Shown here: one piece after another, positions 71 through 45,153 of the stretch
Position numbering within the stretch: position 1 is the stretch's first letter
How the letters are laid out: every line of letters starts with the position of its first letter
NCBI GenBank assembly: GCA_038150265.1
Contig: JAYOTF010000012.1
Span: forward strand, 1-45,153
Reading direction: 5' to 3'
Origin: Deltaproteobacteria bacterium
GTDB lineage: Bacteria; SAR324; NAC60-12
Length of the DNA stretch: 45,153 bases
Made by a program: the position numbers and the translations under genes
Notes under the pieces: model-generated
Database searches by the model: none
What the model was told of the DNA's origin: nothing
The model's input: only the letters and a program-made list of their open reading frames with translations

Positions 71-2782
71 TCAGTCAGCCGTCCGAAAAGGTGTGGCCCC
101 CTGTTCCTGAAACAGGAGGGACAGGGCGTCAAGGCGGTTCTGCAGCTGCATGTGGGTGGGGGACTCCGGCAGCGCCTCCAGGGCCGCCTGCAAGGAGCTC
201 ACGGTTTTCCGGACACGGGGGTTGGCAGGGAGGCTGGCCAGATCGAGGTACCGGTCCAGGCCCCGTGTGCGCCACACGGTTCCATCCTGGTGTGCCCCCC
301 AGCCAAACTGTTGGGCAAAGGCCACCTTGCTGCCTCCCTCAGCTTCCCACGCCTGAAGCACCTCCTGCGTGACCTTGACCAGCTCCTGGCGAGGAGGCCG
401 ACCCGTCTCCGGAACCTTCGGGCGCTCCGGACGGATCTCTGGGGGCGTCTCCCGGAGCAGGTGCGGCTCCAGGCGGGCGATGAGCTCTGGAAAATGGATG
501 GGTTTGGAAACGTAGTCGTTGGCCCCGCTTTCAAACACGCGTGTCACCTCACGTTCGCGGTGAAAGGAGGTCAGCAGGAGGATGGGGAGTTGGGAGAAGC
601 GCTCCAGCTTCCGGACGTGCTGACAGAGGGTGAACCCATCCATGCCTGGTAGCTGGGTTGCCATCAGGATGGCATCCGGATGCTGATCGGGAAAGCGCTC
701 CAGCTGCTGGAGCAACTCTGCTCCAGAGCCAAATCCATCCACCTGCACCTGCGCACGCTGAAACGCTTCCAGGCCACTCCAGAGCAGCATCTGGTCCTCA
801 TCCACCAGAAAAACGCGGAACCGTGGCGTTGGCAGAGGTTCCGGAGGAGCCACTTCACGCGAGGAGGCAGCCAGGGACATGAGGGAGAAGCCAATCCGCT
901 TTCCCCCGGGCGTGCCCTCACAGCGCAGCTCGCTCTGGTGCAACCGAGCCAGCTCCTGCGCCAGGCTCAGCCCTGCTGTGGCTTCCGGGCGGGCGCGGCT
1001 GTGCCGCTTCCCCGGTTGGAGCCACTGCTGAAACTCGGTTGCTGTTGGCACTGGCCCGCCATCCTGCACTCCAATCTGAACCCGCTCCCCCTCTAACCAC
1101 GCCTCCAGCAGCACCTCTCCTGCGACCGAGTGCTGAAGCGCATTGAGCGTCAACTCCTGAAGCAGTTGGTACACCTGGTGCGGGTCGGCCCAAACGGTGG
1201 GGAGGGACTCGGGGGCATCCAGCACCAGCAGGTGCCGGGACCGCGGCTCCAGGACCCGCAGGAGGTCTTCCAGAAGGGCTCTGAGCTGAAGAGGCTGAGG
1301 ATGACACGGAAGGGCCTTCTCTTGGGCCTGGGCATGCTGGAAAACGCGCTCCATCTGTTCAATCAGGCGCAAGCTGGCTTCCTGGGCCAACCGCACCCGA
1401 GAGGCCACCGTCTGGGGGAGGTCCCAGTTGCCCTCCTTCACACTCTGCAGCAGCGTGTTGACGCTCTGCAAGGGGGGAATCACCTGCTCTGCGAGGTGCC
1501 CCGTCACCTGCTCGTGGAGTTCGTCCGCCCCTCGGGCCTCCTGCCTGAGCCGTTCCCTCCACTTGCCCTCGTTCTTGAAGAGCGAATGCTCCCAGGTCCG
1601 CCGCACCAGCACCCAGTTGATGAGCAGCAGCTCCACCAACACGGCTCCCTGCAGCGGCAGGACGAAGTACCCGACCGACAACGCCGGGACACTGATGGAC
1701 ACCACAATGTACACGGACGCCAGGAGCGGGAGAGACCAGGCCAGCGTCAGGAGGGTCACCTCCGAGTGGGTCCGGTGGAACCGCCACCAGCAGGCCCCCA
1801 GCACGCCCACCGTCACCAGCTGAAGCGGAAGTATCAGCAGCTCCTCGGGGAAATGAGGCGCCCAGACCTCAAACCCACTCCAGAAGGCGACACTGCTGAC
1901 CAGCGTGAAGACCTGTGTGTACGTAATCAGGCGACTCGCCTGAGGCCACGTGTGCGGCAGCTGCAACGCGCGTTTCATGACCTCAATGCTCAGCACCAGC
2001 GGCAGCCCATTCACAAACACCAGGAGGGCCCCCGGATGCAGGGAGTCCCAGTGGATCAGGAAGGGAAACCCGTTGTAGTACAGAAAGAATCCGGCATGTG
2101 CCAACAGCTCGACCGCGTAGGTGGCATGCAGGGCGCCCTCTCTTCCACGCCACGCCAGCACCCCCTGCATCAACAGCATCAGGAACAGCAGGGTGTAAAA
2201 CACCCCAATCAGCAACTCCTGAAAGAGTTGATTCACAAAAAGGGCTTCAGGGGGCAACACATCCACCCAGGCAATGAGCGGGAGTGGGTCATTGTGCAAG
2301 CGCAGAAGAAGCGGTTGCGCGGGATCCGGATGCGGAGGAAGTTCAAGCAGCGGATAGAGGCTCAGGCCGCGAAACGGACCTGGAGGCCGGAGCAGCCCTG
2401 CTGGGAGCTGCTGAAGCTGCCCGGCTTCTCGCCAGTACAGGTCTGCCTCAAGCAGGAGCGGGATCTGAACCTCGAGAAACCAGGCGCCCAGGGTTCCCGC
2501 GTCTGAGGGAAGCAGGGTTCCATCCAGACTCAACCACCACGCCGATGTCCCTGACACGTCCACCAGCTGTGCCTCTGGAAGCGCCTGAAAGGCTCCTTGC
2601 TGCCAGGCCTGGTGCGCCTCCTGAAACGAAGCCTGCCCCGTTGGGTCTTCCCACACCTGCAGAGAGCTCAGCAGGCGTGCGGCGGCTGACTCGGCCGCCC
2701 AGAGGGCGCGTCCTTGTCCTCCACTCATCAGGATGAGCAGCAGCAAACTGCCCACAGCGACAAACCGGGAAACCAATGTCAT
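71..2782 (-). CDS. Membrane sensor: 7TM-DISM extracellular/7TM domains, degenerate HisKA-HATPase, atypical REC, C-terminal ChiS-like DNA-binding domain (~903 aa)
   Basis: Likely start MTLVSRF at 2782 (TGATG overlap with the upstream stop), then a signal peptide, DISMED2-like 'LQVWEDPTG...WWL', hydrophobic helices, 'VWADPHQVYQLLQELTLNALQH', 'VQDGG', REC 'LVDED...GANDYVSKP', and C-terminal 'SKVAFAQQFGW...RTRGLDRYL...LPANPR'. Confidence 0.85.
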   Translation of the reverse strand: MTLVSRFVAVGSLLLLILMSGGQGRALWAAESAAARLLSSLQVWEDPTGQASFQEAHQAWQQGAFQALPEAQLVDVSGTSAWWLSLDGTLLPSDAGTLGAWFLEVQIPLLLEADLYWREAGQLQQLPAGLLRPPGPFRGLSLYPLLELPPHPDPAQPLLLRLHNDPLPLIAWVDVLPPEALFVNQLFQELLIGVFYTLLFLMLLMQGVLAWRGREGALHATYAVELLAHAGFFLYYNGFPFLIHWDSLHPGALLVFVNGLPLVLSIEVMKRALQLPHTWPQASRLITYTQVFTLVSSVAFWSGFEVWAPHFPEELLILPLQLVTVGVLGACWWRFHRTHSEVTLLTLAWSLPLLASVYIVVSISVPALSVGYFVLPLQGAVLVELLLINWVLVRRTWEHSLFKNEGKWRERLRQEARGADELHEQVTGHLAEQVIPPLQSVNTLLQSVKEGNWDLPQTVASRVRLAQEASLRLIEQMERVFQHAQAQEKALPCHPQPLQLRALLEDLLRVLEPRSRHLLVLDAPESLPTVWADPHQVYQLLQELTLNALQHSVAGEVLLEAWLEGERVQIGVQDGGPVPTATEFQQWLQPGKRHSRARPEATAGLSLAQELARLHQSELRCEGTPGGKRIGFSLMSLAASSREVAPPEPLPTPRFRVFLVDEDQMLLWSGLEAFQRAQVQVDGFGSGAELLQQLERFPDQHPDAILMATQLPGMDGFTLCQHVRKLERFSQLPILLLTSFHREREVTRVFESGANDYVSKPIHFPELIARLEPHLLRETPPEIRPERPKVPETGRPPRQELVKVTQEVLQAWEAEGGSKVAFAQQFGWGAHQDGTVWRTRGLDRYLDLASLPANPRVRKTVSSLQAALEALPESPTHMQLQNRLDALSLLFQEQGATPFRTAD

Positions 2783-7314: not shown

Positions 7315-7944
7315 TCACTTGGTGCCAAAGATGCGGTCACCGGCGTCACCGAGTCCGGGGAGGATGTAGGCATGGTCGTTGAGGCACCGGTCCACTGCCG
7401 CCGTGTAGATCGGCACATCCGGATGCACCTCGTGGAAGTGGGCGATCCCTTCAGGAGCGGCCAGCAGGGAGACAAAGCGGATGTCGCGAGCGCCCTTCTC
7501 CTTCAAACGGGCCACCGCTGCCGCTGAGGAGTGCCCGGTCGCCAGCATGGGATCCAGCGCCAGCACCAGTCGCTGATTGATCAGGTCCGGAAGCTTGAGG
7601 TAATACTCCACGGCCTGCAGGGTCTGCGGATCCCGGTACAGCCCAATGTGTCCGACCCGTGCGGACGGAATCATCTCCAGAAACCCTTCCAGCAGGCCAA
7701 TCCCCGCCCGGAGGATCGGGACCAGGCACAGCTTCTTGCCCTCCAGAAAGGGCGCCTGCATCGTCTCCAGCGGCGTCTGAATCTCTTCTGTATGAGTCGG
7801 CAGGTCCTTGGTCACTTCATACGCCATCAGCATCCCCACCTCCCGGGCCAGGCCCCGGAAGCTTTTGGTGGAGGTGTCCTGCATGCGCATCAGGGAGAGC
7901 TTGTGCTGCACCAGTGGGTGCTGAATTTCGTAAAGTTCTTTCAT
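7315..7944 (-). CDS. upp: Uracil phosphoribosyltransferase (209 aa)
   Basis: Start [10 protein letters not shown] at 7944; 'VPILRAG', PRPP motif '[10 protein letters not shown]', '[17 protein letters not shown]'. Confidence 0.97.
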
Positions 7945-8146
7945 AGGGGCCTCTTCTGCAACAAAACGCCGTCCGGATTCAGTGGCCGCAACGGCAAGGG
8001 TCAAAAAACGACGGAGAGTGTACACGATGTTGCGAGGAAGCACGAGCGGGGAAGGCGTCTTGGCCGGGAAGTCCGGCCGGAGCCTGGAGGCTCCAGTAGC
8101 AGGAGGGGGAAAAGGGCTCAGGCCTTCAGTGGCAGGGAGGCAGGTG

Positions 8147-8899
8147 TCAGGTGTTTTTGCGAGCCAGGTAGAACCCGTAACTGTAGAACGCCTTGAAGCG
8201 TTCATACAGCGCCACTTCCGACTCTTCGGCGTCCACAATCGCCTGAGCCGCTGCCGAGTGGCCGTTCCGGCTCAGGAAGGCCTGGAGGCGGGCCTGCATC
8301 GGGGTGTAGTAGTGATCCTTCCAGCACGCCTCCGGAAGCATCAGGTACCCGATGGGCGTGTAGCCCGCTTCTTCCAGCACCCGCATTTTCGCAGAGGCGG
8401 TGCCGACCTCCGGATACTCGGCCTCCCAGTGCTGCTGCAGTTCGGCAGGGCGCTCATGGGTCGTCCAGCTGAGCTCCGAAACGGCCAGCAGGCCACCGGG
8501 TTTCAGGAAGCGGCGCCACTGCGTGACTCCGGCCTGGAAGCCGATGTGGTAAATGGCTCCTTCTGACCAGATGCCGTCAAGGGACGCGTCTTCGAGGGGC
8601 AGGTCGTCCATGGACGCACAGAGCGGTGTGATCGCCTCCGCCACTCCCGCCTCTGTGGCCCGGGTGGTCAAGCGCTCCAAAAATTCGGGAAGGAGGTCCA
8701 CTGCGGTGATGTGAGCCCGGAGCTGACGAGCCAGCACCAGCGTGGAGGCGCCGGTGCCACACCCAATGTCGGCCAGCGCCAGGGGCGTGTGTGGGTCCCA
8801 GCCAGCCAGGGACAGGGCCTGTTCCGTCACAGCGTTGCTTCCGGGGCCTTGACGATCCCCATCCCGATGCAGATCCATCAGGAGTTCCAGTTCATTCAT
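8147..8899 (-). CDS. Class I SAM-dependent methyltransferase
   Basis: 'RQGPGS', motif I 'ADIGCGTG', 'AVDL', '[10 protein letters not shown]', 'LKPGG'. Confidence 0.92.
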
Positions 8900-9030
8900 G
8901 GGCGGTTTCCAGTATCAGAAGGGCAGGCGTCCCGAACCAAAGGGGTTCCGGACCACAAGGGACGTGTGAGGCTGCTCAGCATGACGCCCCCGGTTCGGGA
9001 GATCAAGAGGAAAGGGGCGCCTGGGGCTCT

Positions 9031-9552
9031 TCAGAAAACCGTCTGCTGTGGTTCCTCCGGAGAAAGGATTTGCTGGTCTCGCTCCACCACCTGCCCCTCC
9101 TGAGAGCGGGTGGCCGTTAACGTCAGCGTTGCCGAATCGTCCGTCCAGAGATGAGAGGTCAGTGTCACCGACTGAACCGGCCCCGGAAATTCTGCCACCG
9201 CCAAAATCACCCACTCGGTCCCCTCCTGCGGAGTGCCTTGAGCGGGAAGAATTTCCATCCACCTGGCTTCCCTCCCGTCGCTCTGCAACTCAATTCCTGC
9301 TTGAAACACCTGCTTGAGGTGCGTCAGAGCAACTCGCTTGCGGGCCCGGGCCTCTGCGTTTTCCGGAAGAAACAGCGCCTGGGGCAACGAGAGCGCCAGG
9401 TAAGCGGTGGTGCCGATCAGGTTAAGGGTGCCGTGCCCCTGCTGAAGCAAATGAGCGGAGGCCTCCGGAGGCGTCCCCCAGACCAGCAGCAGGGTGAGCA
9501 GCACGGCGGCCAGGCATGTTCTTCTCTGTTGAGCGTTACGAAGGAGACGCAT
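9031..9552 (-). CDS. Exported hypothetical protein (~173 aa), partner of the YHYH protein
   Basis: ATG at 9552 overlaps the YHYH stop (TGATG); signal peptide ending ASA-H; mature N-terminus 'HLLQQGHGTLNLIG'. Confidence 0.7.
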   Translation of the reverse strand: MRLLRNAQQRRTCLAAVLLTLLLVWGTPPEASAHLLQQGHGTLNLIGTTAYLALSLPQALFLPENAEARARKRVALTHLKQVFQAGIELQSDGREARWMEILPAQGTPQEGTEWVILAVAEFPGPVQSVTLTSHLWTDDSATLTLTATRSQEGQVVERDQQILSPEEPQQTVF

Positions 9553-10568
9553 CACGGATTCCCGGGAAAAGTTCCAGGAGGAAAGGGAGGCAGGTCGTTC
9601 ACCTCCGCCTCTCCCCTCAGGCACCGCTGGATGTAGGGGTAGCTTTCTGTGATGTAGTAGTGGTAAATGCCTTCCGGAAACTCCGGTGTCACACCCACGC
9701 GGCCATTGCACTCGTCCAGGTCTCCCGAGTTTGCCACGTACTCCCAGTCTTGCTGAAAGTGCCCCATCGGGAAGTAGGTCGTCGAGGGACGTCCGGAGTC
9801 CGGAGTGGACTTGAGCTGATAGCTCCCTTCCACGGCTTTGAGCGCGGACGTGTTGTCAGTGGCGTCGCTGTAGCCCCACTTCGCATAGATCGGGAAGCCA
9901 TCCACAGCCCACCCCACCAGCAGCATCGCCTCCGCGCTGCCGTTCAGTTCGTCGATCAACCCGGTCGGCATGCCATGGTAGTGATACGTTCCCGTCGGCT
10001 GCACGTGCGCGTTGCTCGTGTCCGTCCCAAAGTCAAACTGCCAGGGAGAGGTATCGCCCGCAAGGGCCTCCATCCGCCAGGCGTCTGATCCCTGAGCATA
10101 GTTGCAGTCGGTGTCTGCCGTGGCTGAGTCCGGACAGGTCCCTGCCGTGGAGGGCTCAAACTTGACCGAGTTGAGCGCAAATCCCGGAGTCATCGCCGTC
10201 TGGGTGGAGTTCGCCTCCACTGGGCTCAGGGGGAAGGTTTCCGTCACCGTCTGCTCCGTGATTTGTGACGCAAAGTTGCCGTCGGTCACCGCATGGTTGG
10301 GAACGCCGTTGCCGCTCAATTCGCGGCTGTCCCCTGTGCAGCTCCATTCAAAACGGTAGGGCAGCGTCTCAGACACGGCACTCGAGGTATTGTCAACCGG
10401 GTCCGTGTGTGTGTAGCTCAGTTGCTGGCTGCCGCTCCCGGAGTACGCACAAAGAGCGGTCAGCGTGGAGCTGCCGTTATCGCTGGTACTGGTCCCGCTC
10501 GTGGAGCTGCAGGACATGCCCCCCATGGCAAGGAGGGAGGTCAGGAGTGAGATCACAATTCGTTTCAC
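9552..10568 (-). CDS. YHYH domain exported protein, probably a lipoprotein
   Basis: Signal peptide with Cys ('GMSC'), Ser/Thr linker, 'NGVPNH', 'NAHVQPTGTYHYHG', 'VGWAVDGFPIY', 'DLDECNG', 'YHYYIT'. Confidence 0.93.
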   Translation of the reverse strand: MKRIVISLLTSLLAMGGMSCSSTSGTSTSDNGSSTLTALCAYSGSGSQQLSYTHTDPVDNTSSAVSETLPYRFEWSCTGDSRELSGNGVPNHAVTDGNFASQITEQTVTETFPLSPVEANSTQTAMTPGFALNSVKFEPSTAGTCPDSATADTDCNYAQGSDAWRMEALAGDTSPWQFDFGTDTSNAHVQPTGTYHYHGMPTGLIDELNGSAEAMLLVGWAVDGFPIYAKWGYSDATDNTSALKAVEGSYQLKSTPDSGRPSTTYFPMGHFQQDWEYVANSGDLDECNGRVGVTPEFPEGIYHYYITESYPYIQRCLRGEAEVNDLPPFPPGTFPGNP

Positions 10569-12456: not shown

Positions 12457-13035
12457 TTAGGCGGCGGGAAGGCCCTTGGAGTTCGGAAGAGCCTCTTGCT
12501 GTTCCTTGGGCTTCGGGAGGTCCGAGTCCAGGTACTTGGTGTTTTCATGAGGCTGGTACTCATCCCGGAGCAGGTCGCGGGTGAAGTTGAAGGTCTCCCG
12601 ATTGGAGAACGCCATGCCAATGACCCCGGTGTCCATGCGGATCGCCTGCTTCGGGCAGGCCTCAACGCACAGGCCACAGAAGACGCAGCGCAGTTCGTCG
12701 ATGTCGAACTTGACCGGGTACTTCTCCACCGACATGTCCGGATGCTCGCCGGCCTCAATGTGGATGCACTTGGCCGGGCAGACCGTCTCACACATGTAGC
12801 AGGCGACACACTTCAGAAAGCCGTCGTCTCGTCGGGTGAGGCGGTGACGTCCCCGCCAGCGAGGAGAGACGTGGCGCTTTTCCTCGGGATACTGAATGGT
12901 CACCACTTCCTGAGCCCCAAAGAGGTTCTTGAGGAAGTGCTTCACCGTCAGCCGGAACCCCGTAAACATCGCCGGCAGGTAGAAGGACTCCTTGAGTCCG
13001 TCCACACGCTCTACTTGTTTGACTTTCAAATCCAT
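12457..13035 (-). CDS. nuoI: NADH-quinone oxidoreductase subunit I
   Basis: 'TIQYPEE', 'RGRH', two CxxCxxCxxxCP motifs. Confidence 0.96.
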   Translation of the reverse strand: MDLKVKQVERVDGLKESFYLPAMFTGFRLTVKHFLKNLFGAQEVVTIQYPEEKRHVSPRWRGRHRLTRRDDGFLKCVACYMCETVCPAKCIHIEAGEHPDMSVEKYPVKFDIDELRCVFCGLCVEACPKQAIRMDTGVIGMAFSNRETFNFTRDLLRDEYQPHENTKYLDSDLPKPKEQQEALPNSKGLPAA

Positions 13036-13112
13036 TAATCAGCTCCTGATCGTTTCTGGCGTGCGTTCCGAACGGACCGTCACGCAAAGGTCGTCGTTGG
13101 GTTTAAGGGGAC

Positions 13113-14186
13113 TTAAACGAAGATCAGAATAATCACCGCGGTTGCCACTGTGTTGATCAGCGAAAGCGGCAGCAGCTTCTTCCACCCCAGCGCCATCGTC
13201 TGGTCAAAGCGGAACTTCGGAACCGTCCAGCGCAACTGGATCTGGAACCAGCAGAAGAAGATCACAAAGAGGGAGAACTTCAGGACCTGAAGGATCCGGA
13301 CCAGCCACTCGGGAGCACTCGTCCACAGGTGCAGCCACGGAACATGATAGCCTCCAAAGAACAGGGTGGTGATCAGGGAGGCGACCCCGACCACGGCCAC
13401 ATACTCGGCCAGCATGAAGGCCGACCAGCGCATCCCGGAGTACTCCAGGAAGTATCCGGCGACAATCTCGGATTCTCCTTCCGGAGCATCAAAGGGCGCC
13501 CGCTTGGTCTCGGCAATCAGGGCCGTGGTGAAGAGCAGGAATCCCAGCGGCTGCGTGAAGACGCCCCACTGCGGAATCAGGCTTCCAAACCAGTACTGGT
13601 TCTGGCCATCCACGATGTCGCTCACTCGGGTGGAGCCGTACACCATGAACACCCCCATCAGGGCCAGGCCCATGAACACTTCGTACGAGAGCATCTGCGC
13701 CGAGGCTCGGGTGCCTCCCAGCAAGGCGTACTTGCTGTTGGAGCTGGCTCCTGCCAGTACGGCTCCGTAAACGCTCAGAGAGGTGATGGCAAAGATGAAG
13801 AGCAATCCGGGCTCCACATCGGCAATCTGAAACTTGAAGTCTCCAATGGGAGCCGCAAAGGGGATGATGGCAAAGGTCGCGACTCCGGCGATGAGCCCGA
13901 AGAAGGGAGCAATCAGGAAGAGGAACCGGTCGGACCCCTCGGGCATCGTGTCTTCCTTGAAGATCGACTTCAGGCCATCGGCGGCAATGTGCAGGAGCCC
14001 GTTTCCGGTGAAGTTTCCGGCATTCGCTCGGTTCGGCCCCACCCGGTCCTGAATCATGGCGCTCCACTTGCGCTCCATCAGGGTCATCAGCGTCCCCAAC
14101 GGCATGGCAAACAGCAGGATCACGACCACGATCTTCAGCAACGACTGAACGAGGGGAATCGAAAGGATTTCAAGAAGAATTTGCAT
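13113..14186 (-). CDS. nuoH: NADH-quinone oxidoreductase subunit H
   Basis: 'ERKWSAMIQDRVGPN', 'ADGLK', 'AETKRAPFDAPEGESE', 'EYSG'; multiple TM helices. Confidence 0.97.
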   Translation of the reverse strand: MQILLEILSIPLVQSLLKIVVVILLFAMPLGTLMTLMERKWSAMIQDRVGPNRANAGNFTGNGLLHIAADGLKSIFKEDTMPEGSDRFLFLIAPFFGLIAGVATFAIIPFAAPIGDFKFQIADVEPGLLFIFAITSLSVYGAVLAGASSNSKYALLGGTRASAQMLSYEVFMGLALMGVFMVYGSTRVSDIVDGQNQYWFGSLIPQWGVFTQPLGFLLFTTALIAETKRAPFDAPEGESEIVAGYFLEYSGMRWSAFMLAEYVAVVGVASLITTLFFGGYHVPWLHLWTSAPEWLVRILQVLKFSLFVIFFCWFQIQLRWTVPKFRFDQTMALGWKKLLPLSLINTVATAVIILIFV

Positions 14187-14224
14187 GGTCTATCCCAAGC
14201 GCTTTTGGTTTCAGAGTCAGGGGC

Positions 14225-15454
14225 TTAGCGGTCCAGCTCGCCACCGATCATGTTGATGGAGCCGAAGATCGGCACAATGTCGGCAATGTAGTGCCCGATC
14301 GTCATCTTGGGCATCGCCTCCACAAAGTTGAAGCACGGGGGACGCAGCCGCACCCGGACCGGATCACCGGAGCCGTCGGAGACCACGAAGAAGCCGACCT
14401 CGCCGTTGCCGCCTTCCACCGGCAGGTACGCTTCACCAGCAGGCGGACGGTGGCCTTCCATGACCATCTTGAAGTGGTCAATCAGGCCTTCGATGTTGCC
14501 GTACACGTCTTTCTTGTCCGGATAGTGAACACGCCGCTCCAGGGTCTGGATCGGGCCCACAGGCATCTTGTCTGCAGCTTGCTCAATGATCGAGATGCTC
14601 TGACGGATCTCTTCCATGCGGACGAGGTAGCGGTCGAAGCAGTCGCCGGTGGAGCCAATCGGGATCTCGAAGTCGAGCTCCTCATAAACCGAGTACGGGT
14701 CCGAGCGGCGGATGTCGTACGGGATGCCGCAGGCCCGGAGCATGGGACCCGTGAACCCGAAGGAGAGCGCATCTTCCTTGGAGATTGCGCCAATGTCCTT
14801 GACCCGGTCGATGAAGATCTTGTTCTTGGTCAGGAGGCGATCGCACTCGTCCATGACGTCCTTGACCTTGTCGAGGCGGTCCTGAAGCGCATCCAGGAAG
14901 CCGTCTGGCAGGTCGGTCGCATTGCCGCCGAATCGGGTCCAGTTGGTGGTCAACCGGGCCCCCGTGACTTCCTCCACCAGCTCCCAGAGGTACTCGCGGG
15001 CCTTGATGAACCAGAGGAAGAAGGTGAAGGCCCCCACTTCCATGGCCGAGGCGCCCAGGCACGTCATGTGGTCCGTGATCCGGGAGATTTCGCCCATGAT
15101 GACCCGGGTGAACTCGGCCCGGCGGGGGGCTTCCACGCCGTAGAGTTTTTCCACAGCCATGGCGTAGCCAATGTTGTTGAGCAGCGGCGAGACGTAGTTG
15201 AGGCGATCCGTGTACGGTGTCACCTGAATCCACTTGGAGTTTTCGGACTCCTTCTCAAAGCCGCGGTGGAGGTACCCGATTTCCGGGATCATGTCCACAA
15301 TCAGCTCGCCGTCCACATAGGTTGTGAAGCGCACAATGCCGTGCATGGCGGGGTGCGAGGGACCAATCTCAATGGCCATCACCGAAGACGAGTGGTCCAC
15401 TGACTCCTGCAGCTCGGCTTCGTGCTTCTGGATCTCCAAAGGGGCAGTTTCCAT
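14225..15454 (-). CDS. nuoD: NADH-quinone oxidoreductase subunit D
   Basis: 'GPSHPAMHG', 'IGYLHRGFEK', 'DRLNY', C-terminal 'GELDR'. Confidence 0.97.
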   Translation of the reverse strand: METAPLEIQKHEAELQESVDHSSSVMAIEIGPSHPAMHGIVRFTTYVDGELIVDMIPEIGYLHRGFEKESENSKWIQVTPYTDRLNYVSPLLNNIGYAMAVEKLYGVEAPRRAEFTRVIMGEISRITDHMTCLGASAMEVGAFTFFLWFIKAREYLWELVEEVTGARLTTNWTRFGGNATDLPDGFLDALQDRLDKVKDVMDECDRLLTKNKIFIDRVKDIGAISKEDALSFGFTGPMLRACGIPYDIRRSDPYSVYEELDFEIPIGSTGDCFDRYLVRMEEIRQSISIIEQAADKMPVGPIQTLERRVHYPDKKDVYGNIEGLIDHFKMVMEGHRPPAGEAYLPVEGGNGEVGFFVVSDGSGDPVRVRLRPPCFNFVEAMPKMTIGHYIADIVPIFGSINMIGGELDR

Positions 15455-16002
15455 CAGAATTTCCTTCCGTATTCGTGGCGTTCCTCAACTTCCCGCAGCG
15501 GCATAATCGGCTGCTGCCGGTCCATGGGGTAATCTTTGCGGAGTGGATGGCCCTCAAACTCTTCGTACATGAGCAGGCGGATCAGGTTCGGGTGCCCTTC
15601 AAAGTCGATCCCAAACATGTCAAAGCACTCCCGCTCGTACCAGTCCACCGCGTCCCAGAGGTCATGGATGGAGGCCACGCGGAGGTCGTCTTCATTGAGC
15701 TGAACCTTCAGGCGCAGGCGGTGTCCCAGGGAGAGGGACTTGAAGTGGTAGACCACATCAAAGCGCGGGTCACGCCCTTGCTCCAGGTAGTCGACCGCCG
15801 TCAGGTCCACCATGAGCTCAAACTTGCAGCGCTCGTCATCCCGGAGGAACTTGCACACGCGGTGGAGGGCCTCCCGTTTGATGATCACGGTTTCATCGCC
15901 CCGGTGGTTGTGGGAGTCCCGGACGGTTCCGGGGAACTCGTGGGCAATCAGTTGGGTCAGGGTCAGAGCTGCTTCAGCGTCCGGAGTGGCCGTTTCAGAC
16001 AT
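15454..16002 (-). CDS. nuoC: NADH-quinone oxidoreductase subunit C
   Basis: 'DLTAVDY', 'WYERECFDMFGIDFEGHP', 'GHPLRKDYP'; stop overlaps the nuoD start. Confidence 0.96.
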   Translation of the reverse strand: MSETATPDAEAALTLTQLIAHEFPGTVRDSHNHRGDETVIIKREALHRVCKFLRDDERCKFELMVDLTAVDYLEQGRDPRFDVVYHFKSLSLGHRLRLKVQLNEDDLRVASIHDLWDAVDWYERECFDMFGIDFEGHPNLIRLLMYEEFEGHPLRKDYPMDRQQPIMPLREVEERHEYGRKF

Positions 16003-16020
16003 GGATCGACAGGAAAAGGG

Positions 16021-16728
16021 TTAGGCCTGCTCGTTCTTGAGCGCGTTCTTCTTGGCTTGATCCGCTGGGGAATCGTATCCCATGTGCGGGTCAAGGTTGA
16101 CGTAATCCGAGGAGTAGGTGTAGCCCGGTTTGACGCTCCGGTTGCTCTTCGGATTCTGAATGTTCTCAAGCACCTCTTTCTTCGGAATGGAGAAGTACTG
16201 GTTCAGTTGCTCAAGCTTGCGTTCCCGGTGTCGGATGTCGGTGGGGTTGATCATCTTCGACTCCACCGTCGGCCCATCATTCTGGATGCGGTGTTGCAGC
16301 TCCAGCAAGCCGTCGAGCACGGCCTCCGGACGGGGCGGGCACCCGGCGATGTAGACGTCCACCGGGATGAGCCGGTCGATGCCCTGCAGCACCGAGTAGT
16401 TCTGGTAAAAGCCTCCGGAAGACGCACAGGCTCCAAACGCGATCACCCACTTCGGATCTGCCATCTGGTCATAAACGGTCCGCAGCACCGGAGTCATCTT
16501 GTGCGTGATCGTCCCCACCACCCACAGCACATCCGACTGACGCGGCGAGAAGCGGGGGATCTCGGCGCCAAAACGCGAGATGTCGTAGTGGGAGCAGGCC
16601 GCAGCCATGTACTCCATGCCGCAGCAGGCGGTCACAAAGGGATACTGAAAGAGGGAAAACTTGCGGGACCAGTTCACCACATTGTCGAATGTGGTGGTCA
16701 AAAAATCTCCGTAGTTGGCAGCAGACAT
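16021..16728 (-). CDS. nuoB: NADH-quinone oxidoreductase subunit B with C-terminal extension (~235 aa)
   Basis: Start MSAANY at 16728; 'ACCGME', 'SPRQSD', 'GACASSGG', 'GCPPRPEA'. Confidence 0.95.
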
Positions 16729-16762
16729 TGGATTCTTCCTTAACCGAGGTTGTTGTTTCAGC

Positions 16763-17128
16763 TCACTCCCACTCGAGTGCGCCTTTTTTCCAGTCGTAAA
16801 CCAAGCCAAGTGTCAGGACGACCAGAAACACCATTGCTGCGATGAAACCGAACCAACCAAGTTCGCGCAACTGCACCGTCCAGGGGTAGAGGAAAACGAT
16901 TTCCACATCAAACACCAGAAACACCAACGCCGTCATGTAAAACTTCACATCGTAGCGGTGTCCCTGCATGCCCTCACGCAGGAATCCGGATTCAAACGGG
17001 GTGTCCTTGGCCTTGTTCTTGACCTTGGGGCCCAGCAGCATGCCAATGGCCGAGAAGGCTCCTGCGAGCCCAAGCCCCAGCAAAATCAGAATCAGGATGG
17101 GCAGATAGTCGTTGGCGATCGGAGTCAT
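16763..17128 (-). CDS. nuoA: NADH-quinone oxidoreductase subunit A
   Basis: 'KDTPFESG', '[14 protein letters not shown]', 'WKKGALEWE'. Confidence 0.97.
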
Positions 17129-20687: not shown

Positions 20688-21011
20688 ATGAGTGACGAGC
20701 ACCAGAAACGCCGAAGGCCCATCCAGCGTCCCAACGTCCGGACCAACTTTTATCCCACCTACACCGATGGGGGACTCGACCGGGTCAATCCGGTCCAGGC
20801 GGTCGTGCCCACGCAGTTTCAGCGGGTGATTCCGTACTACGACCTGTCGATGACCAGCACTCGCGATTCCGGAACCGGACCGATGTTCCTTGAGCCCGAA
20901 TACCAGGCTCCGGCATCCCGCCGGCCAGCCGGCCCTCCGCCTCCGGAAGAGCCTCTTTTCAAGCTCCCCAAGCACAGGCGCAAGAAGGTCCGGACCGATT
21001 TCTGGGGTTAG
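20688..21011 (+). CDS. Hypothetical Pro/Arg-rich protein (107 aa)
   Basis: ATG start, fills the gap divergent from ispH, GC3-rich codons, stop overlaps the can stop by 4 nt. Confidence 0.6.
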   Translation: MSDEHQKRRRPIQRPNVRTNFYPTYTDGGLDRVNPVQAVVPTQFQRVIPYYDLSMTSTRDSGTGPMFLEPEYQAPASRRPAGPPPPEEPLFKLPKHRRKKVRTDFWG

Positions 21012-34150: not shown

Positions 34151-35530
34151 TCAACGAGTCAGGGCCTGCAGGCGCGCCTGGGCCCGCTTCACATAAAACT
34201 GGGCTTCTTCCTGTGCCGCGTACTGCCGAATGAACGACCGGTACGCCAGGGCGCTCCCACTCCGGACCACCTCCTCGTAGGCCTCACGAGCCGCTTCACG
34301 CCGAGAGGCCGACGCCGAGGCTCCAGAAGTTTGGGCTTCCGCCAGTTGCGACCGGGCCCGCTTCACGTAAAACGCAGCTTCCGGGACCGTTTCATACTGC
34401 CTGATGAATTTCCGAATTGCCAGCGGACTTCCTTCAGCAACCGCCTGTTCGTAAGCCTTGAGGCTCTGGGCCCGACGGGACACTTCCTGTCCGGAAGCCG
34501 TCACAGGAAACGGTGGCGCAATTTCCACCGGTGGCTCTGCCCGAAGGGACGCCTGCCGCTCTTGCTCCAGAAGCGCCAACCGCAACCGGGCCGCCTGGGC
34601 CAGGGGGCTGGCAGGAAAGCTCCTGAGGAAGAGCCAGAAGTCTTCCGGATTGGAAGAGTCCTTGATCATCGCCCACGACTCCTGATCCGCCTGAAACCGT
34701 TGGTGCAACGCGGGCAGTTGCTCGGAGGTGTGGACCGAAGCCTCCGCAGGCCGGAAGTAAAAATCGCCCGTCAGCGACGACGCCTCCCAGGGAATTTGCG
34801 TGTGGTTGCTCTTCTGCTGCACGGCCCGCCGCACCCGCTTGAAGACGTCTTCCACCTTCAGTCCGGGGGTTTCCAGCTGTTCAATCAATTCCCCGGTGAA
34901 GAGCCCGGTCCGCCCCGCCCCATCGGATGCCACGGCGCCTGGAGCTGTCGCGTAGGCAATGAAGGTTCCGGAAGGTGCCTTCAGCATCGCCAGGCCCTGA
35001 GCCGCACTCCGGAAGCTCCGGGCATACGGATTGTTGCGGCAGGCATCCAGGATGACCAGGTTCATGGCATTCTGCGCCGTTGCCATCTTTGCCAGCACGC
35101 GGCCCACCTCCACCGATTCGTATTCCACATCCGCTTCAGCAGCAATCTCGGCATCGACTGGAATGAGGTAGTTCCGTCCCTCCACCTGCATGCCATGTCC
35201 GGAGTAGTAAAACAGCCCCACGCTTCCTGGTTGCAGACGTTGGCCAAACTGATCAATCGCCTGCTTCAGCTCCTTCTGAGAAGCCTCCAGCAGCAACTCC
35301 ACGTCAAACCCGACGCGACGCAGCGTTGCCGCCATGGCTCGCGCATCGTTGACCGGATTCCGTAAGGGCGCTGAGGCGTAGCGGCTATTTCCCACCACCA
35401 GGGCCGTACGGGGCCCGGCTCCGGAAGGGGCTTCATCGCTCCGGACAATCCCGCGGGAAGTCTGAGCGCTTCCGGAGCCTCCCAACAGCCCCAGCAGAAC
35501 CGTCAGCCCAATCAGTTGTTTCCACAGCAT
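34151..35530 (-). CDS. Secreted caspase-family (peptidase C14) protein, paralogue (~459 aa)
   Basis: Start MLWKQ at 35530 with a GGAGA RBS; signal peptide; 'ALVVGNSRY', 'FYYSGHG', 'ILDACRNNPY'; C-terminal repeats 'FIRQY...FYVKRA'. Confidence 0.9.
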   Translation of the reverse strand: MLWKQLIGLTVLLGLLGGSGSAQTSRGIVRSDEAPSGAGPRTALVVGNSRYASAPLRNPVNDARAMAATLRRVGFDVELLLEASQKELKQAIDQFGQRLQPGSVGLFYYSGHGMQVEGRNYLIPVDAEIAAEADVEYESVEVGRVLAKMATAQNAMNLVILDACRNNPYARSFRSAAQGLAMLKAPSGTFIAYATAPGAVASDGAGRTGLFTGELIEQLETPGLKVEDVFKRVRRAVQQKSNHTQIPWEASSLTGDFYFRPAEASVHTSEQLPALHQRFQADQESWAMIKDSSNPEDFWLFLRSFPASPLAQAARLRLALLEQERQASLRAEPPVEIAPPFPVTASGQEVSRRAQSLKAYEQAVAEGSPLAIRKFIRQYETVPEAAFYVKRARSQLAEAQTSGASASASRREAAREAYEEVVRSGSALAYRSFIRQYAAQEEAQFYVKRAQARLQALTR

Positions 35531-35669
35531 CTTGTCTCCTTTTCCCCAGGTTCCGGAGGAGCTCGGAACGGTTTGGTTTTCGGCCCCTCCTGATTCAGCA
35601 ACAGGCATCCTTCCAGACGGACCAACCCTGTTTTTGCAAAACCGGCCCCTGCGGCAGGGTCAAGCCGCG

Positions 35670-41445: not shown

Positions 41446-41446
41446 A

Positions 41447-42244
41447 ATGCCGCAGCCATCGCTTCGCAAAGCCGATTTTGCCCAGCCTTCTGCCGTGGTT
41501 GGAGAGTACCTCCATTCCATTTATCGCATCAGCTGGTCTGGGGGAGCGGCCAAAGCCAAAGACCTCGCCCGGCGCCTCCGGAGCAGCCCGTCCACGGTGC
41601 ATGCGACCCTGACGCGGCTCAAGCGGGACGCTCTGATTGAGATCGACCAGCAGCGTCGGATCTCCCTCACACCGTCCGGACAGCAGCAGGCCGAGGCGGT
41701 GACTCTGCGGCACAACCTGGCCGAGTACTTCCTCTTTCAGGAGCTGGACATCCCCTGGTACCAGCTGCACCTCCACGCGGAACACCTCGAGCACGCCCTC
41801 ACCCCATTGGTCACGGAGCACCTGGCCGAACGGCTGGGGCACCCTCAGTACTGCCCCCACGGCTCTCCCATGCCTGGCGGCGGAGGCACCTTCACCTGCC
41901 CCACCCTGGCCCTCAGTGAAGTCGTTCCGGGAAACGTGGTGGAGCTGCTGATGCTGGATGAGATGCTGGAAAATTCGGAAGAGGTCATGAAGCACCTGCA
42001 GACCCACGCCCTGACCCCCGGACGGCACCTCCACGTGAGCGTTCGGAGCGACGACATGCAAACCCTGGCGCTGCAGCTGGAAACGGAGCAGCACCCGAAG
42101 GTCTGCAAGCACTTTGAAGAAGAGCCCTGCTTCCGGAAGCTGGAAGCCCAACCTCCGCAACACAACCACGCCAACCCGACCCTCCTCTCTTACGAGGTCG
42201 CCTCACACATTCTCGTGACTCCGGTTCGCCCCCTCGCGGCGTGA
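41447..42244 (+). CDS. DtxR/MntR family metal-dependent transcriptional regulator (~265 aa)
   Basis: Start MPQPS at 41447; 'EYLHSIY', wHTH 'DLARRLRSSPSTV', 'RHNLAEYFL', 'AEHLEH', 'CPHGSP', FeoA-like tail. Confidence 0.9.
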   Translation: MPQPSLRKADFAQPSAVVGEYLHSIYRISWSGGAAKAKDLARRLRSSPSTVHATLTRLKRDALIEIDQQRRISLTPSGQQQAEAVTLRHNLAEYFLFQELDIPWYQLHLHAEHLEHALTPLVTEHLAERLGHPQYCPHGSPMPGGGGTFTCPTLALSEVVPGNVVELLMLDEMLENSEEVMKHLQTHALTPGRHLHVSVRSDDMQTLALQLETEQHPKVCKHFEEEPCFRKLEAQPPQHNHANPTLLSYEVASHILVTPVRPLAA

Positions 42245-43864
42245 GGGTTTGGGCTTGTTGCTGCTCGGTCGCCCAAACCGGAAGCGGAAGGAGCTGTCTC
42301 CGACCATGATTTCGTCTCCTTCGCGCAAGAACCGCTGTTCCACGCGACGGCCGTTGATCAGGGTGCTGTCTCCAGCCAGGTTGACCAACTTGAACTGCCC
42401 CCCAATCTTGACGATCTTGGCATGCCGCGCCGCAATCTCGGAGCTGATCAGCTGCACATCGTTGGTGTGGGCACTGCCGATGAAGGTGATGTTCCGAACC
42501 AGCGGAAAGTCATTCCGAGCATCGGCAAACTGCAAGCTCGGGAGCCCCTTCCGGAGCGGTCCATTCGGCTTGATCCACACTGCAGGCAACACCGGCACCG
42601 AGGGCTTGGTCTCTTCCGCCTCAGCCTCCGGAAGCTGCTGCTTCGGGTTGTGGAACATCAACACCATCTCCCCCACGTCCAGCAGGTCTCCATGCTGAAG
42701 CAGCCGACGGTGGATGCGCCGACGGTTGATCAGCAAGGCATTCTTGTAGTTCTTGTCTTCCAGCATCATGGAGCCGTCCTGCGGCGTCAGCAGGACACGG
42801 TGCAGGTTTGCCGAAAGCCGGAGCTTGCGCTGCGTCCGGAGCTTGGTCAGGAACTCCAGGCTGCCTCCTGAGTCCGGAATCGGGACCACCTGGTCCTTCT
42901 CACGCGGGCTGAGCAGCTGAAAGCCCATCCCTTCGCTCACAGGGACACGCGGTCGACGGTTCCACCAGAGCAGACCGGCAAAGAGCGTTGCGCCCGCAAG
43001 CGCCACTCCTCCGGACCACACCGGCACTTCCAGTTCCGGCCAGTAGTGCAGTCCCGGCGCCTGCCAAATCACCTCATACTCCTGCTCTGCCGTCCGGGCA
43101 TGAATCTGCAGGGTCTTGCCGTCTCCATGCCAGTTCGGATCCTGATACGTCAGCATCCACTCCGAGTCTGCTTCCGCAAGCACCTGCTCCCAAATTGCCG
43201 GCAGCTCTTCCTTGCCTCCAATGCGATGAATCCGGGAGGTGCCTTCAATGTTGGAAACCTCCACCCCAGGAAAGAAGACCGCATGCAGGCTCACATGGTT
43301 CTGAGCAAGGAGGGTGGCGATCTGCTGATCATGCCACTCCGCAACCGGAAAGTGATCGGTCAGGACCACAACCAGCCGACGCTTTGAGGCATCGCTCCCA
43401 AACTCCTTGAGCGCCGAACGCAACGCCGAGGGAAAGGGCTCCTGACGCGGACGAATCTGCTCCGGAAGGTTCTCGTCAAAAGCAACCAGCCCCCCTTCCC
43501 AGGACACCTGAACCCGTGTCTTCTCCGGCAATGTTATCGGTAACAAATCTTGCAACAAAGCAGCGGGGTCTTCCTGTTTCCAGGCGCTGGGGAGGAAGAG
43601 GAGGATTTCCAGGGGCAAGGCGTCGCGGCGGCGTTCCAGTTGATCCACCAGCAGCGTGGTGCCTTCAGCCTGGAGTTGGAGATTCAGGGGAAAGTACGGG
43701 TCTTGGTGAAGGTCCTCCGGAAGGAGGAGGAAGAGGCGGTGACTGTTTTCCAGCATGGCCTGAGAGGCATCGGAACCAACCACCACAAGAGTGGGTTTGC
43801 CAAGGGCCACGGTTCCCCAGAAGAGGACGGCCGTCAGCACGGATGCAATTTTCCAGAAGTTCAT
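42203..43864 (-). CDS. Single-pass membrane protein: exported (VWA-like) N-terminal region and two cytoplasmic FHA domains
   Basis: Signal peptide; 'RRLVVVLTD'; TM 'GGVALAGATLFAGLLWW'; 'LLINRRR...GDLLDVG' and 'IGSAHTNDV...IAARHA...LINGRR...GDEIMVG'. Confidence 0.82.
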   Translation of the reverse strand: MNFWKIASVLTAVLFWGTVALGKPTLVVVGSDASQAMLENSHRLFLLLPEDLHQDPYFPLNLQLQAEGTTLLVDQLERRRDALPLEILLFLPSAWKQEDPAALLQDLLPITLPEKTRVQVSWEGGLVAFDENLPEQIRPRQEPFPSALRSALKEFGSDASKRRLVVVLTDHFPVAEWHDQQIATLLAQNHVSLHAVFFPGVEVSNIEGTSRIHRIGGKEELPAIWEQVLAEADSEWMLTYQDPNWHGDGKTLQIHARTAEQEYEVIWQAPGLHYWPELEVPVWSGGVALAGATLFAGLLWWNRRPRVPVSEGMGFQLLSPREKDQVVPIPDSGGSLEFLTKLRTQRKLRLSANLHRVLLTPQDGSMMLEDKNYKNALLINRRRIHRRLLQHGDLLDVGEMVLMFHNPKQQLPEAEAEETKPSVPVLPAVWIKPNGPLRKGLPSLQFADARNDFPLVRNITFIGSAHTNDVQLISSEIAARHAKIVKIGGQFKLVNLAGDSTLINGRRVEQRFLREGDEIMVGDSSFRFRFGRPSSNKPKPSRREGANRSHENV

Positions 43865-44712
43865 TAGGTCTCGCAGTACTGCAGTAGCGCTGACCCTGCT
43901 TTGATGATGTCTCCGTCTTTGAGTGGTTGTTGATGGACTTTCCGAAAATTCACCTCCAGTTCCCCGCCTTTCTCCACATTCTGCAGACTCATCTGCTCAT
44001 TGTCGATCCGGAGGTCAGCGTGGTGGGCACAGACCTCGGTGTACCCCGAGAGCCTCAGGTCCGCGTGACGGCCATACCCGAGGCTCAGCAACGGGGATGA
44101 CAGCAACCAGGATTGCCCGATTTGTGGTCCATTGATCACACGCAACTGTGCGTGAGAGGTCAGATTTTCTAAACCCGCCTGGACCAACTGGTACGTCAGG
44201 CCATAAGCGAGCAACGCCACCGCTTGCGCAGTGCCATCAAAGGGAGTAAGCGCTACAAGTTCAACAAGAAGCCCACCGGCCAAACCTCCGGCCCCTCCCC
44301 CCAGACACGGGCGGAGGATGAGATGGGATCGAGCATGAAACACACAAGAAGCCCCACCCAGCAACAAGCCGAGCACGCCCCATCCAACCAGACGGGAAGC
44401 AAAAGGTGGGACCTGATAAGCCAACAGATAATCGGCTGAACGGAAAGCAAGCCACCCGCTGACGCCTCCAATGACGGCTCCCCTGAACACATGGAGGGCC
44501 ACTTCATTGAGGGGCAGGTGCTTCAAAAGCGGATCCCGGGCCAACAGAATCGCCCCCAACCCTGCAGAGGCGGTTATCCCGTGGATCACAAAAGGAGAGA
44601 TCGTGAAGTACTCAACAAAGGTAGGACTGAGCGCGAGCAACCCCCACGCCACCAAACCGGCAACAGCCCCCAGCAAGGCATTTTCCAGTAAATGCTTACC
44701 TTTGTGGGGCAT
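43864..44712 (-). CDS. Multi-pass membrane protein with C-terminal FHA domain
   Basis: About 6 Gly-rich TM helices, then 'LGYGRHADL...VCAHHA...VNF...LKDGDIIKAG'; stop overlaps the next start (TAATG). Confidence 0.82.
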   Translation of the reverse strand: MPHKGKHLLENALLGAVAGLVAWGLLALSPTFVEYFTISPFVIHGITASAGLGAILLARDPLLKHLPLNEVALHVFRGAVIGGVSGWLAFRSADYLLAYQVPPFASRLVGWGVLGLLLGGASCVFHARSHLILRPCLGGGAGGLAGGLLVELVALTPFDGTAQAVALLAYGLTYQLVQAGLENLTSHAQLRVINGPQIGQSWLLSSPLLSLGYGRHADLRLSGYTEVCAHHADLRIDNEQMSLQNVEKGGELEVNFRKVHQQPLKDGDIIKAGSALLQYCET

Positions 44713-44811: not shown

Positions 44812-45153
44812 TCAGGTACGCCGCCGGCGGATAAATGCAGGAATATCCAAGTTGTTCGAAAAGTTGGCGTCTGCCTTGTTGACCCATTCCGGAACCACCG
44901 GTTGGGTCTGGACTGGAGGACGCTCCATCCCCAGGGAAGCATACCCCATGCCGATGGTGGTGCTCTCGACCGAGGAGCCATTCCGGTTTTGAACCGCCAG
45001 GGGTTCCGCCTCTGCTGATTTCTCAGCAGGGACAGGGGTGGGCGCAGGCGCCACAACCGGCTCCGGAGGAGCCGCAGGCGCTTCAGCCATGACCGGTGCG
45101 GGTTCAGGCCTCGAGGGCACCGGCTCCGGAGGCGCAGGCACGGCCATGAACGC
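44812..45153 (-). CDS. ftsZ: Cell division protein FtsZ, C-terminal linker and conserved tail (partial; 5' part lies outside the window)
   Basis: Pro/Ala-rich linker ending 'NNLDIPAFIRRRRT', the FtsZ C-terminal conserved peptide. Confidence 0.85.
   Translation of the reverse strand, partial: AFMAVPAPPEPVPSRPEPAPVMAEAPAAPPEPVVAPAPTPVPAEKSAEAEPLAVQNRNGSSVESTTIGMGYASLGMERPPVQTQPVVPEWVNKADANFSNNLDIPAFIRRRRT

Follow-up and report, generated by a model that had tools for sequence, protein, structure and literature searches.

The closest described system is HIP1 (GCGATCGC) of cyanobacteria, a short G+C-rich palindrome that is, in the available portions of the published accounts, many-fold over-represented, variable between lineages and of unresolved function (PMC4390886, PMC5861425). 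HIP1 sites are reported in one of these texts, as far as it was accessible, to be conserved between genomes and periodic at 10-90 kb (PMC5861425). Alternate highly iterated palindromes (HIPs) appear in the accessible part of the other, namely rCCGGy in Oscillatoria PCC 10802, GGCGCC in Calothrix PCC 7103 and GCsGC in Cyanothece PCC 7822, which occur at 500-2,500 or more per Mb and are each accompanied by a methyltransferase of that specificity (PMC4390886). Such palindromes have been a puzzle in cyanobacteria for three decades, for which methylation-linked repair, nucleoid structure and DNA uptake are still competing explanations. The hexamer TCCGGA was analyzed here in a stretch of 45,153 bp from an uncultured marine deltaproteobacterium of the SAR324 lineage (contig JAYOTF010000012.1, positions 1 to 45,153; hereafter the window, on contig C12) and in the assembly to which it belongs (GCA_038150265.1; genome G000). 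TCCGGA in this genome is best read as a HIP1-like phenomenon outside the cyanobacteria, and its copies are spaced on one face of the double helix.

The window has a G+C content of 61.3%, slightly below the 63% judged by eye in the initial annotation, and contains TCCGGA 137 times, compared with 14.9 copies expected from base composition. The word ranks first among hexamers at 9.2x, with the runner-up at 5.2x. The copies are scattered from 208 to 45130, with a median gap of 253 bp (minimum 7, maximum 1,485), and account for 137 of the 528 CCGG sites. The counts given initially were accurate: about 33 copies had been reported for the first 10.1 kb (32 lie up to 10,100 and the 33rd is at 10,129), about 55 for the first 20 kb (exactly 55 up to 20,000), and the word had been described as frequent to the end, where the remaining 82 copies fall in 20,001-45,153; the 3-4 copies expected per 10 kb were computed as 3.3. 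Markov expectations for the window climb with order (17.1 at order 1, 35.4 at order 2 and 107 at the maximal order, order 4), so higher-order models take up part of the excess. All three reading frames are populated (30, 30 and 68 copies), as had been noticed. Predicted genes of the window hold 128 copies, compared with 30.3 ± 4.9 in synonymous shuffles (maximum 42, n = 200) and 44.9 ± 5.1 in shuffles that also kept dinucleotides (maximum 60, n = 200), and 128 of the 306 coding positions where the word is synonymously possible carry it.

The assembly comprises 3,393,712 bp in 87 contigs (longest 214 kb) and is rated 97.8% complete. Genome-wide, 9,711 copies of TCCGGA were counted (2.86 per kb, or 2,861 per Mb), where base composition predicts 1,118 (an 8.7x excess); the Markov expectations from order 1 up to order 4 are 1,283, 2,457, 4,068 and 7,958 copies. 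Both the observed/expected ratio and the maximal-order z (19.6) place TCCGGA first among the hexamers of the genome. Its sister palindromes GCCGGC, CCCGGG and ACCGGT reach only 0.67-0.68x, so the excess is specific to the T..A flanks; RCCGGY words are under-represented (0.67-0.88x, by arithmetic on the counts), and the half word TCCGG is at 3.15x. The sign of the bias is opposite to that of restriction avoidance, in which a word is depleted, and a Chi-like recombination signal was ruled out because a palindrome cannot be strand-oriented.

Genes were called by a simple procedure based on open reading frames (ORFs) and codon scores, which yielded 2,853 genes covering 90% of the genome. The 2,838 genes without N contain 9,009 copies of TCCGGA, written 2,115 times as TCC-GGA, 2,440 times as xTC-CGG-Axx and 4,454 times as xxT-CCG-GAx. 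Within-gene synonymous codon shuffling gave 2,155 ± 42 copies (a 4.2x excess), codon permutation gave 1,316 ± 34, and shuffling of third positions with protein, codon usage and dinucleotides kept gave 3,153 ± 42 (2.9x), with 20 shuffles in each case; enrichment per frame was 2.3-5.2x against both protein-preserving shuffles. Spacers of 30-300 bp hold 263 copies where 36 were expected (7.3x), and TCCGGA is the top word there besides A/T-rich runs. Among the 21,842 coding positions where the word is synonymously possible, 9,009 (41%) are occupied. TCCGGA overrides codon preference and recruits rare codons: Leu-Pro-Glu is written CTT-CCG-GAx in 59% of cases, CTT being only 9% of Leu codons, and Val-Arg-Thr positions are 83% occupied. 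Log-odds of occupancy against the dinucleotide-preserving shuffle are, by arithmetic, 1.46, 1.12 and 1.65 in the three frames; these values are small and alike, so the force per site is weak and similar everywhere. In 619 segments of 5 kb the mean number of copies was 14.5 with a variance of 16.6 and a minimum of 3, and occupancy was near binomial (chi-square 650 on 618 degrees of freedom). The pressure acts on DNA rather than on protein or codons and is about equal in the three frames and in spacers. TCCGGA therefore shows what marks the HIP class, being a palindrome far above its compositional expectation, the top word of its size, and present in all frames and in non-coding DNA.

Spacing between copies was examined against a null in which the possible positions were fixed and the occupied ones were shuffled among them (100 shuffles). 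Distances between TCCGGA pairs gave one sharp spectral peak, at 10.45 bp, with a power of 38.2; no peak in the null spectra exceeded 7.5. Copies separated by whole helical turns occur at 1.15-1.17x the expected number and pairs at half turns at 0.87x, a pattern that persists to 300 bp; the distance peaks (31, 41-42, 51-52, 61-63 and 72-73 bp) are not multiples of three, so neither a codon effect nor a protein-helix effect is at work. Thirteen words were tested alike and TCCGGA alone was phased; among the 12 controls the power never exceeded 6.9, and at 10.45 bp it stayed at or below 2.4. Phase with TCCGGA is kept by its one-letter variant TCCGGG/CCCGGA (power 14.4 at 10.55 bp) and by none of TCCGGC, TCCGGT, TCCAGA, CCCGGG, GCCGGC and CTGCAG, whose power at 10.45 bp was no higher than 2.3. 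Because TCCAGA/TCTGGA replaces TCCGGA in the sister genome about as often as TCCGGG/CCCGGA does and yet is unphased, decayed copies do not explain the phasing of TCCGGG/CCCGGA, which looks like graded recognition. The flanks of 317 spacer copies mirror one another, with Y at -1 and R at +1 (70% each), C at -2 (41%) and G at +2 (42%), and G at -3 (42%) and C at +3 (41%), for a consensus of g-c-Y-TCCGGA-R-g-c; in coding DNA the preference for a purine at +1 is visible as greater occupancy before Glu than before Asp.

The survey of the trait covered 64 genomes at the level of the order and 72 at that of the phylum, in which TCCGGA and the reversed word AGGCCT were counted. TCCGGA reached 2.2-2.9 per kb in the genus of this genome (g1), 1.4-2.3 in g12 and 0.7-1.1 in g4, and ranged from 0.12 to 2.1 inside the single genus g11, where G041, G049 and G050 stand at about 0.12-0.16 and G042 and G044 at about 2. 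The ratio of TCCGGA to AGGCCT was about 1x in g2 (nine genomes), g5, g8 and g9 and at most 2x in f2, where G023 stood at 0.13x; outside the order, a mild excess was seen in some lineages (f7, g33-g35) and a 50-100-fold deficit in G080, G081 and G084. Some lineages are poor in AGGCCT itself (the G013 sample has 0.09 per kb) and ratios to it overstate the excess, so a composition-based expectation was used instead wherever sequence was at hand. The excess in nuo loci was 4.4-12.4x, mostly about 9-12x, at 42-43% G+C and 4.6-8.9x at 57-61% G+C, and the trait is independent of G+C content among relatives spanning 41-61%. Samples of 400 kb gave 2.26 copies per kb in G002, 2.40 in G001, 2.31 in G013 and 1.26 in G051; unenriched G014 had 0.22.

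Turnover of individual sites was followed in orthologue pairs aligned between this genome and five samples of this 400-kb type (331, 285, 257, 196 and 84 pairs), by scoring joint occupancy at positions able to carry TCCGGA in both genomes. In G002, where occupancy was.36 and four-fold-site identity.53, the probability that a position was occupied was.55 if it was occupied here and.22 if it was not. The corresponding values were.42 and.27 in G001 (occupancy.33, identity.43),.43 and.31 in G013 (occupancy.36, identity.39) and.22 and.20 in G051 (occupancy.21, identity.25); G014 occupied.04 of the shared possible positions at an identity of.25. Occupancy in this genome was.42-.45 in the alignments to the first two relatives. 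Persistence of TCCGGA relative to G002 was 0.33, 0.54 and 0.19 by frame, similar to that of other hexamers at the same positions, and fell to about 0 by G051. Single copies are not conserved beyond background, and density is what stays; conservation beyond the neutral level, a property of the HIP class (Xu 2018), was not observed in these alignments. The copies are interchangeable and turn over at about the rate of background hexamers, with their density and one-face spacing of 10.45 bp kept, and the pressure is sensitive to helical face, favours a symmetric word and differs between close relatives. Per 1,000 aligned codons, the enriched relatives (four genomes) have 19.4-22.2 positions able to carry TCCGGA, compared with 16.7 in G014 and, in the same alignments, 20.7 in this genome; this is no more than suggestive of a pressure that also shifts amino-acid choice, as orthologue sets differ between comparisons.

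The genome was searched for genes that could account for the bias. No C5 methylase (PF00145), Vsr (PF03852) or type I N6 methylase (PF02384) was found in it, and the neighbours that deamination would deplete are not depleted (TCTGGA 2.53x, TCCAGA 2.62x, and TTCGGA, of the TTCGGA/TCCGAA pair, 1.36x); a very-short-patch bias of the Dcm/Vsr type was rejected on these grounds. A PF01555 search returned two SPPY-motif genes of the N4/N6 type. The first, MTase1 (G000:C45:2844-3617; beta order of motifs), overlaps by 4 bp a retron-type reverse transcriptase (NF038233, E = 4e-59), the two genes together spanning G000:C45:1438-3617 (locus L041 35-2217) outside the window, and a 311-residue protein without known family lies downstream. 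Its true orthologue was found in only one of 63 relatives (G001), although G002 is equally enriched, and MTase1 was rejected as the agent. The retron/MTase1 region resembles a defence island; it occurs in only two genomes and yet has the full density of TCCGGA (9 copies in 3.7 kb).

The second gene, MTase2 (G000:C51:248-1384; motif I before SPPY), reads 730 residues in G002 with a 350-residue tail of Arg/Asp/Glu repeats (full length, L045:451-2643; in G000, C51:1-1387). The N-terminal tail is of low complexity and charged, with Arg/Asp/Glu repeats at high G+C and Lys/Ser-rich sequence at low G+C. MTase2 is present in 52 of the 64 genomes of the order, including 7 of 9 in unenriched g2 and 18 of 19 in f2. 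Its motif IV is degenerate in enriched or mildly enriched g3, g4 and g6 (APPA, RPPL/RPPF or NPPM/HPPL), and a deletion has removed the gene from two enriched genomes (G018, G052) and two unenriched ones (G041, G050), where its neighbours stand 80-178 bp apart; none of the 21 genomes of families f3-f7 has it, TCCGGA being in excess in some of them. The nearest solved relatives are weak matches to DNA N4/N6 methylases and to a tRNA methylase. The stretch before motif I, read stop to stop, measures 167-401 residues in strongly enriched, 116-129 in intermediate and 72-110 in unenriched genera, a trend that rests on few related genera within the order. Since MTase2 occurs in unenriched lineages and is lacking both in families f4 and f7 and in the enriched genomes G018 and G052, it was rejected as neither sufficient nor necessary. 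A scan of predicted proteins for (D/N/S)PP(Y/F/W) gave 21 proteins, of which 13, together with one extra open frame, were checked against Pfam; two had a weak methyltransferase match or none, and those with a family match were rejected as DNA methylases, being housekeeping methylases of RNA or protein (RlmKL, RsmD, PrmC) or unrelated enzymes. On gene content, a methyltransferase specific for the word, as accompanies HIPs (Elhai 2015), appears to be lacking. ComEC was found in G000 and in all 26 high-quality genomes of the order, enriched or not, and was rejected as a discriminator because it is universal.

The explanation that we tentatively prefer, at somewhat less than an even chance, is an abundant symmetric DNA-binding protein that exerts a weak genome-wide pressure for TCCGGA. 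The word would be a lineage-specific 'genome word', maintained at very high density through weak, uniform pressure on the double helix that works on every place where TCCGGA can be written. The agent may be a symmetric protein, dimeric or a loop-forming tetramer, that reads a site of roughly 12 bp (the flank consensus given above), tolerates TCCGGG/CCCGGA, and binds or bridges same-face copies three or more helical turns apart, acting on the chromosome as a reader with an architectural or self-marking role. Under this model roughly 40% of the possible positions would be kept occupied by selection of about Ne*s 1-1.7 per site. The initial annotation had offered methylation, repair or a protein-binding mark as sources of the sites, and the last of these best accommodates the phasing along the helix, the mirrored flanks and the graded use made of TCCGGG/CCCGGA. 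A fuller version, in which an abundant, sequence-specific architectural protein on about 10,000 interchangeable TCCGGA sites bridges those on the same face as a chromosome 'bar code' of a hitherto undescribed kind and so organizes the nucleoid or marks self, is possible but rather doubtful. If true, the bar code would be selected strongly enough to shift codon choice throughout the genome, and probably the choice of amino acids too, and no earlier highly iterated palindrome would combine a physical read-out signature (the 10.45-bp phasing) with the lack of a methyltransferase.

Several observations weigh against a binding protein. Biased repair or conversion would give the same saturation, evenness and turnover, and selection and drive are inseparable here. 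A reader protein for TCCGGA was not found in the searches made: no histone-fold protein was present in 63 other genomes of the order save one unenriched 12-Mb genome (G006), and histone-fold chromatin was rejected as the reader; no Bse634I- or NgoMIV-type protein was detected, with control genomes silent for both families too. The spacers of the genome contain no operator-like arrays that might mark a candidate reader gene, and the spacings in the 21 spacers with at least three copies are irregular. In the 400-kb samples of relatives the best period was 10.45 bp in G002 and 10.35 bp in G013; phasing was absent in G051, and in G001, where the best period was 11.8 bp, it was weak or unresolved. 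No 10.45-bp coupling of TCCGGA to WW or SS dinucleotides was found in the genome, so the phasing does not reflect a general wrapping code. The shortage of pairs at 6-17 bp (0.47x) recurs in other G+C-rich palindromes (GGCGCC, GCCGGC and AGGCCT), and short-range avoidance was therefore rejected as a trait of TCCGGA. The gene calls are crude, which limits the precision of all counts of possible positions.

Among the rival explanations, the model that Elhai put forward for HIP1 and the alternate HIPs, a repair drive linked to modification, would have an orphan methyltransferase mark TCCGGA and a modification-dependent mismatch or very-short-patch repair convert near-cognates, leaving the excess of the word as a functionless by-product. 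This fits the uniform saturation, the fast positional turnover and the excess of the half word, and the genome does encode two SPPY-motif genes of the N4/N6 type; the matching methyltransferases of GGCGCC, rCCGGy and GCsGC in cyanobacteria provide precedent, as far as the source was available (PMC4390886). The initial annotation had pointed to a cognate methyltransferase with Vsr, as for HIP1, and this was not supported: C5, Vsr and type I genes were not found in a genome rated 97.8% complete, MTase1 is confined to G001 besides this genome, MTase2 does not track the trait, and the Pfam-checked (D/N/S)PP(Y/F/W) proteins with a family match belong elsewhere. The undepleted deamination neighbours also speak against such a drive, and helical phasing is unpredicted unless the enzyme needs two sites; we regard it as rather unlikely. 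A self-recognition signal for DNA uptake or recombination, by which the competence or recombination machinery would favour TCCGGA-rich DNA and the word would spread through preferred uptake of kin DNA, is less probable again. Known uptake sequences are 9-12 nt long and non-palindromic, a hexamer discriminates little, helical phasing is not predicted, and ComEC, whose presence throughout the order would suit uptake, is equally present in unenriched lineages. The idea draws on HIP1, whose abundance correlates with DNA-transfer genes and which was proposed as an uptake sequence (PMC13756078) and improves transformation (bioRxiv 10.1101/2024.09.10.611283), according to the parts of these sources that were available. 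It would also suit the lack of any 5-kb segment poor in TCCGGA and the full density of the retron/MTase1 island; metagenome-assembled genome (MAG) binning by oligonucleotide usage itself drops TCCGGA-poor contigs, however, so the even spread is weak evidence.

An intrinsic code of DNA mechanics, with TCCGGA favoured for its bendability or A-philic CCGG core and phased for supercoiling or wrapping with no reader, would account for the 10.45-bp phasing itself. It is very unlikely, given that the chemically similar ACCGGT, GCCGGC and CCCGGG are under-represented and unphased, that no WW/SS periodicity is locked to the word, and that the symmetric flanks point to base-specific reading. Least credible by far is a by-product of codon usage, dipeptide content or CCGG frequency. 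TCC, CCG, CGG and GGA are common codons, and 7,958 of the 9,711 copies are predicted by the Markov model of maximal order because TCCGG and CCGGA are themselves in excess; no shuffle reproduces the count, however, and the spacer excess, the recruitment of rare codons, the excess at both 41% and 61% G+C, and the mere 4% of shared possible positions occupied in unenriched G014 all stand against it. Such an artefact is refuted by the shuffles, the rare codons and the spacers. The genome-wide, DNA-level signal proposed initially has thus stood up to Markov and codon-shuffle controls run genome-wide and per frame, with an excess that is not confined to one frame and is not shared by the other NCCGGN palindromes.

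The proteins of the window are those of ordinary chromosomal genes (nuo, metG, ispH, ilvD, motAB, sensor kinases and caspase-domain proteins), and the closest NuoD relatives among named records carry titles of the SAR324 cluster. Six copies of TCCGGA lie outside predicted genes, at 8947, 9056, 9362, 9464, 29913 and 44007, the last within an ORF that the gene caller had discarded. Four of them (8947, 9056, 9362 and 9464) fall in the spacer at 8900..9551, between a methyltransferase-domain gene (8147-8899) and a YHYH gene (9552-10568); this spacer contains small ORFs and its non-coding status is unproven. Two copies had been cited as intergenic, of which 8947 lies in that spacer and 7972 inside a long ORF (7315-8238), yet upstream of the start of its UPRTase domain. 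The nuo block (nuoI, H, D, C and B and a small ORF; 12457..17128, minus strand) has only 8 copies, in keeping with the sparseness noticed there, because few positions in it can encode the word (only 2-6 per gene); nuoD (14225-15454), in which no copy had been seen, has one at 14517, using one of six possible positions. The densest gene of the window is a caspase-domain gene (34151..35608, minus strand) with 10 of 19 possible positions occupied, and a small ORF (20688..21011, plus strand) has all four occupied. Also present are an adjoining pair of caspase-domain (Peptidase_C14) proteins of 696 and 485 residues at 32033-35608, two FHA/YscD-like proteins at 42203-44712, and a 553-residue ThyX-family protein at 10768-12429 with two matched Thy1-domain stretches, about twice the usual length.

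Other observations were made in the course of these counts. CTAG-containing and TA-rich palindromes are extremely rare genome-wide (CCTAGG 38 compared with 1,118 expected, ACTAGT 12, CATATG 15 compared with 447 expected). Five other genomes of the phylum, G080 (31 copies compared with 1,584), G081, G083, G084 and G023, have 7- to 100-fold fewer copies of TCCGGA than of the reversed word. An HpaII-type restriction enzyme, for CCGG, adjoins a C5 methylase in G081 (L303), so the deficits are probably ordinary CCGG avoidance; the depleted relatives were rejected as a lead to a TCCGGA-specific enzyme because this single system examined is of the HpaII type. G023 has 26 PF01555 matches. Eight histone-fold matches in G006, in repeated pairs about 6.5 kb apart on two contigs (G006:C7 and G006:C488), resemble a eukaryotic histone gene array and may be bin contamination. 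Most of a set of loci from Bacteroidetes-titled MAGs (L032-L039, 34-37% G+C) hold 2-9 copies of TCCGGA where 0.3-2.5 are expected (about 2-8x), possibly a second lineage with the bias, on small counts. Viral contigs scanned for paired TTCCGGAA yielded 116 stretches, from which 80 loci were retrieved. Two contigs are rich in TCCGGA throughout, L210 (47 copies in 12 kb, 67% G+C) and L235 (19 copies in 6.2 kb, 46% G+C), and in L185 and L243 a single giant gene holds the copies at even intervals, which suggests that it is repetitive. When the nine richest viral loci were compared with the proteins of this genome, seven had no match and two had one weak match (about 30% identity), that of L210 being at 30%. 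L210 and L235 have next to no protein similarity to this genome, and no phage link to SAR324 hosts could be established.

No report of a TCCGGA word bias in SAR324 or elsewhere was found in the literature covered, which excluded subscription journals. The same kind of signal as in cyanobacteria is now seen in an unrelated, globally abundant deep-ocean lineage. The SAR324 case is the more tractable, as it combines a helical-phase signature, pointing to simultaneous reading of the duplex, with no obvious methyltransferase. A further such feature is the large variation between close relatives, exemplified by genus g11, which is the right material for phylogenetic profiling of the responsible gene. 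TCCGGA is also a strong diagnostic signature for binning genomes of this kind and recognizing their DNA.

In Escherichia coli, an excess of CCWGG arises from Dcm/Vsr very-short-patch repair, which requires a C5 methylase and Vsr and depletes the T-containing neighbour. TCCGGA is likewise a word bias at the DNA level, there produced by a repair system tied to a methylated palindrome, but the C5 methylase, Vsr and neighbour depletion are all unseen here. Uptake sequences (the uptake signal sequence, USS, of Pasteurellaceae and the DNA uptake sequence, DUS, of Neisseria) resemble TCCGGA in their thousands of evenly spread copies in genes and spacers and in being lineage-specific. They are longer than TCCGGA and lack its symmetry, we know of no helical phasing for them, and ComEC does not discriminate lineages here. 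SeqA with GATC, loop-forming proteins and type IIF enzymes needing two sites use pairs of sites on one helical face; TCCGGA may be compared with SeqA/GATC and the two-site type IIF enzymes as a short palindrome paired at whole helical turns, as an analogy of mechanism only. Compared with HIP1, TCCGGA has six letters rather than eight, belongs to another phylum and lacks an evident counterpart of DmtA and DmtC; in contrast to HIP1 as portrayed in the available account, its sites turn over at about the background rate and the period found, with a longest contig of 214 kb, is 10.45 bp. TCCGGA is not among the alternate HIPs named in the accessible text, has no evident methyltransferase where theirs match, and is of the opposite flank class, T..A (Y..R) rather than the R..Y of rCCGGy. 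With those palindromes, as far as they are described there, it shares hexamer or pentamer size, the CCGG core of rCCGGy and, at 2,861 per Mb, their density; with HIP1 it shares a G+C-rich palindrome, a many-fold excess in all frames and between genes, and abundance that varies between lineages.

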